From positions 32,001-96,000 of IMG/VR virus record IMGVR_UViG_3300008267_000007: DNA of 64,000 nucleotides; one strand, given 5' to 3'. Each line of letters opens with the position of its first letter. Position 1 is the first letter of the stretch. This document shows, piece after piece, positions 9,248 to 9,385 of this stretch. Source of the DNA: a virus. The translations under genes were made by a program, and so were the position numbers. Under the pieces are notes generated by a model. That model made no database searches. It saw nothing but the letters and a program-made list of their open reading frames with translations, and was not told the origin of the DNA.

Positions 9248-9385
9248 ATGAAAAAAGTACAATTCACAATGCAAGAAATTTGGGCAGCGTCACGACACAT
9301 TGTTCAAAAGAATAAGAAAAAGTATAATCGTAAAGAAAAGCATAATAGAAAGGACCCTAATAAGGGTCCTTATTTAGTTTGTTAA
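9248..9385 (+). CDS. ArfA-like small basic protein (45 aa, not in ORF track)
   Basis: SRHIVQKNKKKYNRKEKHNR resembles E. coli ArfA [24 protein letters not shown]; own promoter 9219. Confidence 0.6.
   Translation: MKKVQFTMQEIWAASRHIVQKNKKKYNRKEKHNRKDPNKGPYLVC
9350..9380 (+). terminator. Intrinsic terminator inside the ArfA-like ORF
   Basis: AAGGACCCT-AATA-AGGGTCCTT then ATTTAGTTT; stop codon only at 9383-85. Confidence 0.7.

Follow-up and report, generated by a model that had tools for sequence, protein, structure and literature searches.

A small phage gene with a terminator-like hairpin ahead of its stop codon: a candidate ArfA/BrfA-like ribosome-rescue or channel-binding factor

To our knowledge, the rescue factors ArfA, BrfA and ArfT, which depend on a release factor (RF) and are tiny and fast-evolving, have so far been found only genetically and in single bacterial lineages. 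ArfA measures 52-55 amino acids (aa) in its mature form (PMC6299226). Its residues 31-48 sit in the mRNA tunnel, and the protein is active when truncated at N47 and inactive when truncated after M40 (PMC5378476). The contacts of the KH motif are conserved in ArfA as well as in BrfA (PMC8012679). The stem-loop of arfA leads to premature termination or RNase III cleavage and brfA carries a rho-independent terminator ahead of its stop codon, so both proteins come from non-stop mRNA and trans-translation represses them (PMC8012679); the original prediction on the phage gene described here had named this background. ArfT, a protein of 40 aa, is without such regulation and is undetectable by homology to ArfA (PMC6299226). 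Reviews expect that further RF-dependent rescue factors exist (PMC8012679, PMC6299226). A survey of 1,956 genomes of Fibrobacterota, Chlorobiota and Bacteroidota (FCB) found no ArfA (PMC11633108), and the literature that we searched contains no phage- or virus-encoded alternative rescue factor and none for Bacteroidota.

Here we describe a phage gene for a 45-aa protein that shares several features with these factors. In our view the best explanation of the sequence features described below is that it encodes an ArfA/BrfA-like ribosome-rescue or channel-binding factor, to which we give a probability of roughly 45%.

The gene, its cassette and its family

The gene lies in an IMG/VR virus record of 111 kb (31% GC). 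The record contains the window, by which we mean the whole 64,000-nt stretch of DNA that was analysed. All ORFs of at least 113 aa in the window are on the + strand, except for two embedded ones. The gene encodes MKKVQFTMQEIWAASRHIVQKNKKKYNRKEKHNRKDPNKGPYLVC (45 aa) and is organized as follows (window positions).

9218-9237, + strand: promoter-like 20-mer TTCGTATATTTAGGTATAAT, ending 10 nt ahead of the ATG
9248-9385, + strand: ORF of 45 aa including its stop, member of a DUF7230-like phage small-protein family
9266-9307, + strand: conserved N-terminal core TMQEIWAASRHIVQ, residues 7-20, with invariant or near-invariant columns
9308-9343, + strand: basic tail motif KNKKKYNRKEKH, residues 21-32, aligning to the mRNA-tunnel segment K31-H45 of ArfA
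9350-9371, + strand: terminator-like hairpin inside the ORF, encoding K-D-P-N-K-G-P
9372-9382, + strand: U-rich tail ATTTAGTTTGT, the transcript end predicted from sequence, ahead of the stop
9383-9385, + strand: TAA stop codon, starting 12 nt past the end of the stem
9412-9431, + strand: following promoter-like 20-mer, which serves the DUF932 gene at 9453-10253

The ORF is a genuine conserved phage gene under purifying selection. The original prediction had proposed it as an unannotated gene, which is confirmed by its coding signal and its conserved homologues. Across a 26-codon core of 51 distinct DNA versions, 19104 differences fall on third codon positions versus 8573 and 7181 on the other two. 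The in-frame codon differences of these 51 sequences comprise 10991 synonymous and 11214 non-synonymous changes, and the two other frames give synonymous/non-synonymous counts of 1598/21604 and 734/22208. A large protein collection holds 19 close homologues of the 45-aa protein, and a profile search of 1.84 billion representatives recovered 282 clusters (50% identity) at E <= 0.001, 95 of them at E <= 1e-10. The family loci comprise 36 in viral contigs, 19 in metagenomes and six in genome bins.

Family proteins are 36-50 aa in size, with a median of about 50 aa, and follow the consensus M-K-x-I-x-V-T-M-Q-E-I-W-x-A-x-R-P-x-V-x-[KR]-N-K-K-K-Y-x-R-K-x-K-H-K, which ends in a short variable tail. 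The Pfam domain DUF7230 (PF23876) is matched by 108 of 150 family representatives (best E 4.2e-6) and by three of 20 close homologues of the window protein. The window protein itself has no Pfam match at E <= 10, DUF7230 included, so that its membership is by transitivity only, through relatives that do match. PHROGs 18092, 6310 and 2701 are each matched by 19-20 of 34 family members, and like DUF7230 all three are annotated as of unknown function. The searched literature makes no mention of DUF7230 and records no link to ribosome rescue. Searches of the PDB with the 45-aa protein (phmmer), of cultured phages with the surrounding region (megablast and blastn), and by tblastn with a 496-aa ORF and a consensus-like family member as queries returned no match.

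The only cultured phages that carry the family are isolates of Flavobacterium phage vB_FspM_immuto, in which the member is gp147 (NC_055915, 67229-67378), a 50-aa "hypothetical protein". Among 401 Flavobacteriaceae genomes searched, just one has a copy, that of Flavobacterium aciduliphilum. This rarity in host genomes and the carriage by phages indicate a phage or mobile-element family and not a host housekeeping gene. The chromosomal F. aciduliphilum copy (L067; DSM 25663, NZ_QLSZ01000003, 119-125 kb) has SIR2-family, DprA/SLOG-like and DUF4116 genes as neighbours, and the region around it may be a mobile or defence island. In a 430-kb viral contig (L023:2501-2902) and in P0286, an extension of about 100 aa, which opens with a lipoprotein-like signal (…LIVLFSGCSQ…), is joined in frame to the family core.

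An AlphaFold2 model of the 45-aa protein (pLDDT 76.5) predicts a helix at residues 8-14 and an extended tail. The first 20 residues reach a mean pLDDT of 88-93 per 10-residue block. Foldseek found nothing in the PDB for this model, as is expected for a 45-aa peptide.

The ORF occupies a promoter-to-terminator cassette of about 165 nt. Between the 20-mer and the ATG there is a very short leader without a Shine-Dalgarno sequence. The 20-mer TTCGTATATTTAAGTATAAT, counted at <=3 mismatches, has 31 + strand copies at 2009-19224 of the window, versus 0.03 expected by chance, and 27 repeat matches were found in the genome. The gene had been claimed to have its own promoter. One of the 31 copies is indeed in place at 9218-9237, but that it serves as the promoter of this ORF we infer from sequence. 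The TATATTTA part of the 20-mer resembles the Bacteroidota -7 box, TAnnTTTG. Many copies directly abut GC-rich hairpins, and in the region 2009-19224 small early genes are surrounded by a dense arrangement of promoter-terminator cassettes. In the window a near-identical hairpin, GGCTCCC-nnn-GGGAGCC, follows unrelated genes as a repeated terminator element, with copies at the following window positions.

432-448: hairpin copy
1569-1585: hairpin copy
4138-4156: hairpin copy
43296-43312: hairpin copy
56247-56263: hairpin copy

On its 5' side the gene is preceded by an ATP-dependent DNA ligase, by clustered tRNA-like genes and by two small unassigned ORFs. Rfam tRNA matches above the gathering score lie at 8340-8429 and 8659-8734. 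In the tRNA-like gene at 8340-8429, 28 nt are inserted into the anticodon-arm region, and more T-arm-like sequences occur near 8530-8560 and 8805-8872. ARAGORN reports neither a tRNA nor a tmRNA in the whole 111-kb genome. A distant family member (L028:1-2500) adjoins an array of 12 canonical tRNA genes, and most other loci have none. Canonical tRNAs occur in the flanks of only three of 62 related loci, so that the family as a whole is not linked to tRNAs.

In a marine metatranscriptome (run X1), a 215-nt contig aligns to window positions 8816-9028 with two differences. The phage or a near relative was therefore present in this RNA library, with DNA carry-over as a possible source. The metatranscriptome contains 7% of the sampled words, and its contigs give no usable cover of the ORF.

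Resemblance of the basic tail to known rescue factors

The original prediction had compared the protein with Escherichia coli ArfA, and the ArfA string it quoted is correct against the translation of arfA from NC_000913 (MSRYQ...). When a profile built from 34 family sequences was searched against all PDB sequences, E. coli ArfA ranked first (E 0.031, 17 bits), tied with staphylococcal enterotoxin B, an obvious chance hit in the same search (E 0.036). The alignment pairs profile positions 16-37 with ArfA residues 27-51 and opens a 3-residue gap at GKG; the tail motif of the window protein shows the same 3-residue gap when set against ArfA K31-H45. The profile-profile comparison suggested with the prediction gave P 3.6e-4 but a probability of 37% over 23 columns (hhalign), against an ArfA template that is shallow because its alignment contains only enterobacterial sequences. 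The real score was reached by none of 20000 whole-sequence shuffles of ArfA and by two of 20000 shuffles confined to its tail (residues 25-52). The match goes beyond what composition accounts for.

HMMER and hhalign both align the segment RxxVxKNKK..YxRKxKH to ArfA residues 26-45. The match is confined to the tail that enters the mRNA tunnel. Nothing aligns N-terminal of ArfA R26, in the RF2-activating region, by either program. The ArfA region that pairs with and activates RF2 (residues 15-31) has no counterpart in the family, which has its own TMQEIWxAxRP motif there. Of the 150 representatives, 74 could be anchored by the motif pattern, and 72% of these have H after K in the KH position. 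The KGKGS/GKG insert of ArfA is found in none of the 150, the family reading KNKK-K-Y versus KNKK-GKGS-Y in ArfA.

By no formal test is the protein a member of the ArfA family. The Pfam ArfA model (PF03889, cut-off 25.5 bits) has no match at E <= 10 in the window protein, in 20 close homologues or in the phage genome translated in six frames, and the 25 families listed for the 150 representatives do not include ArfA. We rejected the reading that the protein is an ArfA on account of the failed Pfam model, the missing KGKGS and the unrelated N-terminal region. In the ESM Atlas, a 46-aa cluster of which 23% of members carry PF03889 appeared at rank 29 with a score of 0.88, under the lead threshold of 0.9, and has the weight of a lead. 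The proposed ArfA likeness thus stands for the basic tail and its KH, where it exceeds composition, but not for the Pfam model, KGKGS or the N-terminus, and its statistics are marginal. We regard the likeness of the tail as suggestive.

Set beside ArfA (PF03889; E. coli YhdL), the phage proteins are likewise small and share the basic C-terminal RxxVxKNKK..YxRKxKH with its KH motif. In the window's clade a hairpin inside the ORF is predicted to yield mRNA without a stop, as it does for ArfA, and the predicted phage peptide would end about 11-12 residues past KH, versus 7-10 in mature ArfA. Unlike ArfA, the phage proteins are without the Pfam match and without GKG, have TMQEIWxAxRP and not IEALLHDPLF in the N-terminal region, and are shorter (36-50 aa versus 72, or 52-55 when mature). 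They occur in phages of Flavobacteria-like hosts, and most family members have ordinary stops.

The comparison with BrfA (Bacillus subtilis YqkK) rests on layout and motif. BrfA also has a tail with a KH motif (PMC8012679), and the phage clade has a putative terminator ahead of the stop, at a distance of 12-26 nt. Non-stop mRNA gated by trans-translation is the control of BrfA (PMC8012679) and is predicted for the phage clade. Unlike the phage gene, brfA is chromosomal and confined to Bacillus, and no BrfA chain (PDB 6SZS) was among the PDB matches at E <= 10. ArfT of Francisella tularensis is similar in being about 40 aa with a basic C-terminal stretch, and in being made from an ordinary mRNA, as are most phage family members (PMC6299226). 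It differs in its tail motif, KKGGSTNKK, a comparison made by description only.

The hairpin inside the reading frame

The original prediction had described a perfect 9-bp hairpin with a U-rich tail ahead of the stop at 9383, and this description is accurate. The hairpin at 9350-9371, AAGGACCCT-aata-AGGGTCCTT, has nine perfect pairs and a 4-nt loop, with a dG of -14.0 alone and -15.9 with its flanks. It is followed by the tail ATTTAGTTTGTT, in which the U-tract is weak and imperfect. As a control within the 111-kb genome, we considered about 20 hairpins with dG <= -10 and an ORF end nearby. In all the others the ORF has its stop 12-79 nt ahead of the stem end, and the hairpin at 9350-9371 is the sole one whose ORF stops after the stem end (+12). 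The arrangement is more than chance.

Several hairpins abut the promoter 20-mer directly (4138-4156, 10270-10295, 11531-11555 and 15745-15770) and therefore behave as terminator-promoter junctions. The hairpin at 9350-9371 is of the same kind and presumably acts as a terminator. Among the other genes, the tightest packing of stop and terminator is that of the ORF at 15482-15760, whose stop lies in the loop of the 10-bp hairpin at 15745-15770, which also overlaps the next promoter motif.

A hairpin is retained in this position, two to three codons past KH, by seven to eight related loci. Their stops follow the stem at these distances.

L009, L010 and L046: 12 nt
L048: 18 nt
L047: 21 nt
L045 (immuto): 24 nt
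L053: 26 nt

Pairing holds in 97.8% of cells across the five alignable versions of the hairpin. Two of its pairs have changed both partners, one from A-U to G-C and the other from C-G to U-A. The covariation score was reached by 12 of 500 shuffles. L053 has a wholly different GC-rich 10-bp hairpin at this place, and the tail of its ORF crosses the next promoter motif before the stop. The residues encoded by the hairpin after KH vary among the relatives (KDPNKGP, KDSNKNP, KDSNKDP, GSSQGP and RAAWKSGSP) in the manner that the pairing demands. Upstream of the hairpin, the core of this clade shows 243 synonymous versus 130 non-synonymous codon differences, a sign of purifying selection which indicates that the layout is kept in a working gene and not in a decaying one. 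KH has been lost in one of the hairpin subclades, that of L048 and the P0008-P0015 type. The tails of further homologues (P0005-P0015, P0205, P0206, P0233 and P0276) also look hairpin-encoded.

Most family members have an ordinary stop 3-8 codons past KH, and terminators of the textbook type follow the stop in L013, L014, L016, L049, L051, L052, L055 and L056. In L030 and L065 the hairpin ahead of the stop is weaker and lacks a T-rich tail. The non-stop logic is therefore specific to one clade. The expectation that homologues would keep a hairpin after KH is borne out with covariation in that clade, but most of the family stops first; the proposed control logic of ArfA and BrfA likewise appears as a sequence-level layout in the window's clade and is absent from most of the family. 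Within that clade, the non-stop layout is probably functional.

Competing explanations and a possible role

The phage protein brings together four features that jointly define the working mode of ArfA and BrfA: it is small, its basic tail is of the tunnel type and carries KH, it has another conserved module and, in this clade, a terminator stands ahead of the stop. It is plausible that the phage protein works in the same way and is made from non-stop mRNA. The main rival, which we consider less probable, is an ordinary small basic phage protein with an unrelated function, such as the binding of nucleic acids or a host factor. The terminator would then merely overlap the 3' end of the ORF, transcripts would include the stop, and the ArfA likeness would be convergence or chance in a lysine-rich peptide. 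This would fit the failure of the Pfam ArfA model and the marginal similarity statistics, in which a chance hit scores the same; against it, shuffles of the ArfA tail alone almost never reach the real score (2/20000). The layout can be read both ways as well. Stop-then-terminator arrangements prevail in the family, the window stop lies just 12 nt past the stem behind an imperfect U-tract, and the gene at 15482-15760, with its stop inside a hairpin loop, demonstrates that tight packing occurs in this genome. Yet the stops of L047, immuto and L053 lie 21, 24 and 26 nt past the stem, that of L053 even beyond the next promoter motif, the hairpin-encoded residues vary so that the pairing is kept, and none of the other strong hairpins in the genome that have an ORF end nearby lies ahead of its stop.

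A different use of the same tail is conceivable, in that an mRNA-channel binder could act as an antagonist that blocks the entry of SmpB-tmRNA or ArfB, or the loading of mRNA, and so redirects host translation. The non-stop layout would then provide positive feedback, less tagging giving more inhibitor. The PDB profile match, the shuffles and the hhalign result speak for such a binder as much as for a rescue factor, the N-terminal region is unlike the RF2-activating part of ArfA, and C-terminal peptides of rescue factors could inhibit trans-translation (PMC8012679). We nonetheless consider an antagonist improbable. Nothing argues directly against it, but the strong conservation of the N-terminal mini-domain points to another, specific partner and not to a simple plug. 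That the cassette serves to make a small structured RNA, with the ORF incidental, is suggested by its short promoter-to-terminator span, the adjoining tRNA-like genes and the near-leaderless start. The third-position excess and the in-frame synonymous ratio of the 51 sequences effectively refute this.

The preferred reading remains an ArfA/BrfA-like rescue or channel-binding factor. The protein is the product of an early phage gene in a cassette of its own of about 165 nt, and has the conserved N-terminal mini-domain (xTMQEIWxAxR) and the lysine-rich tail KNKKKYxRKxKH. Where a ribosome has stalled at the 3' end of a truncated mRNA and its mRNA entry channel is empty, this tail may thread into the channel as do the tails of ArfA and BrfA. 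The N-terminal part could then recruit a release factor and free the ribosome, or could act on the stalled complex in another way. Since the terminator hairpin of the window's clade sits inside the ORF, transcripts from the gene's own promoter most likely end ahead of the stop. As long as trans-translation has spare capacity, the product would be tagged by tmRNA and degraded; it would accumulate only at saturation of trans-translation, such as may arise from a flood of broken mRNAs during phage infection.

In this scheme the reality of the gene and its family, the conservation of the hairpin and its exceptional place in the genome, and the likeness of the tail to that of ArfA are observed; the termination site, ribosome binding and rescue activity are all predicted from the DNA. 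Binding of the protein to the ribosomal mRNA channel we rate at slightly below even odds, and true release-factor-dependent rescue is doubtful. We would also call it a speculative and rather unlikely generalization that phages of Flavobacteria and other aquatic hosts carry an ArfA/BrfA-type sensor of about 40 aa for empty mRNA channels on stalled ribosomes, one that recruits a host RF or blocks trans-translation and is gated by tmRNA in one clade. Because a cultured phage, immuto, exists together with its host Flavobacterium sp. LMO8, the idea is directly testable.

If this holds, the family would supply the first alternative ribosome-rescue factor encoded by a virus, and also the first one to act in Bacteroidota. 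The recurrent design with a terminator before the stop would be a third case of tmRNA-gated expression. If the family binds stalled ribosomes, this would provide a function for DUF7230, a widespread domain, and would mean that phages manage the stalled-ribosome pool of their host during infection.
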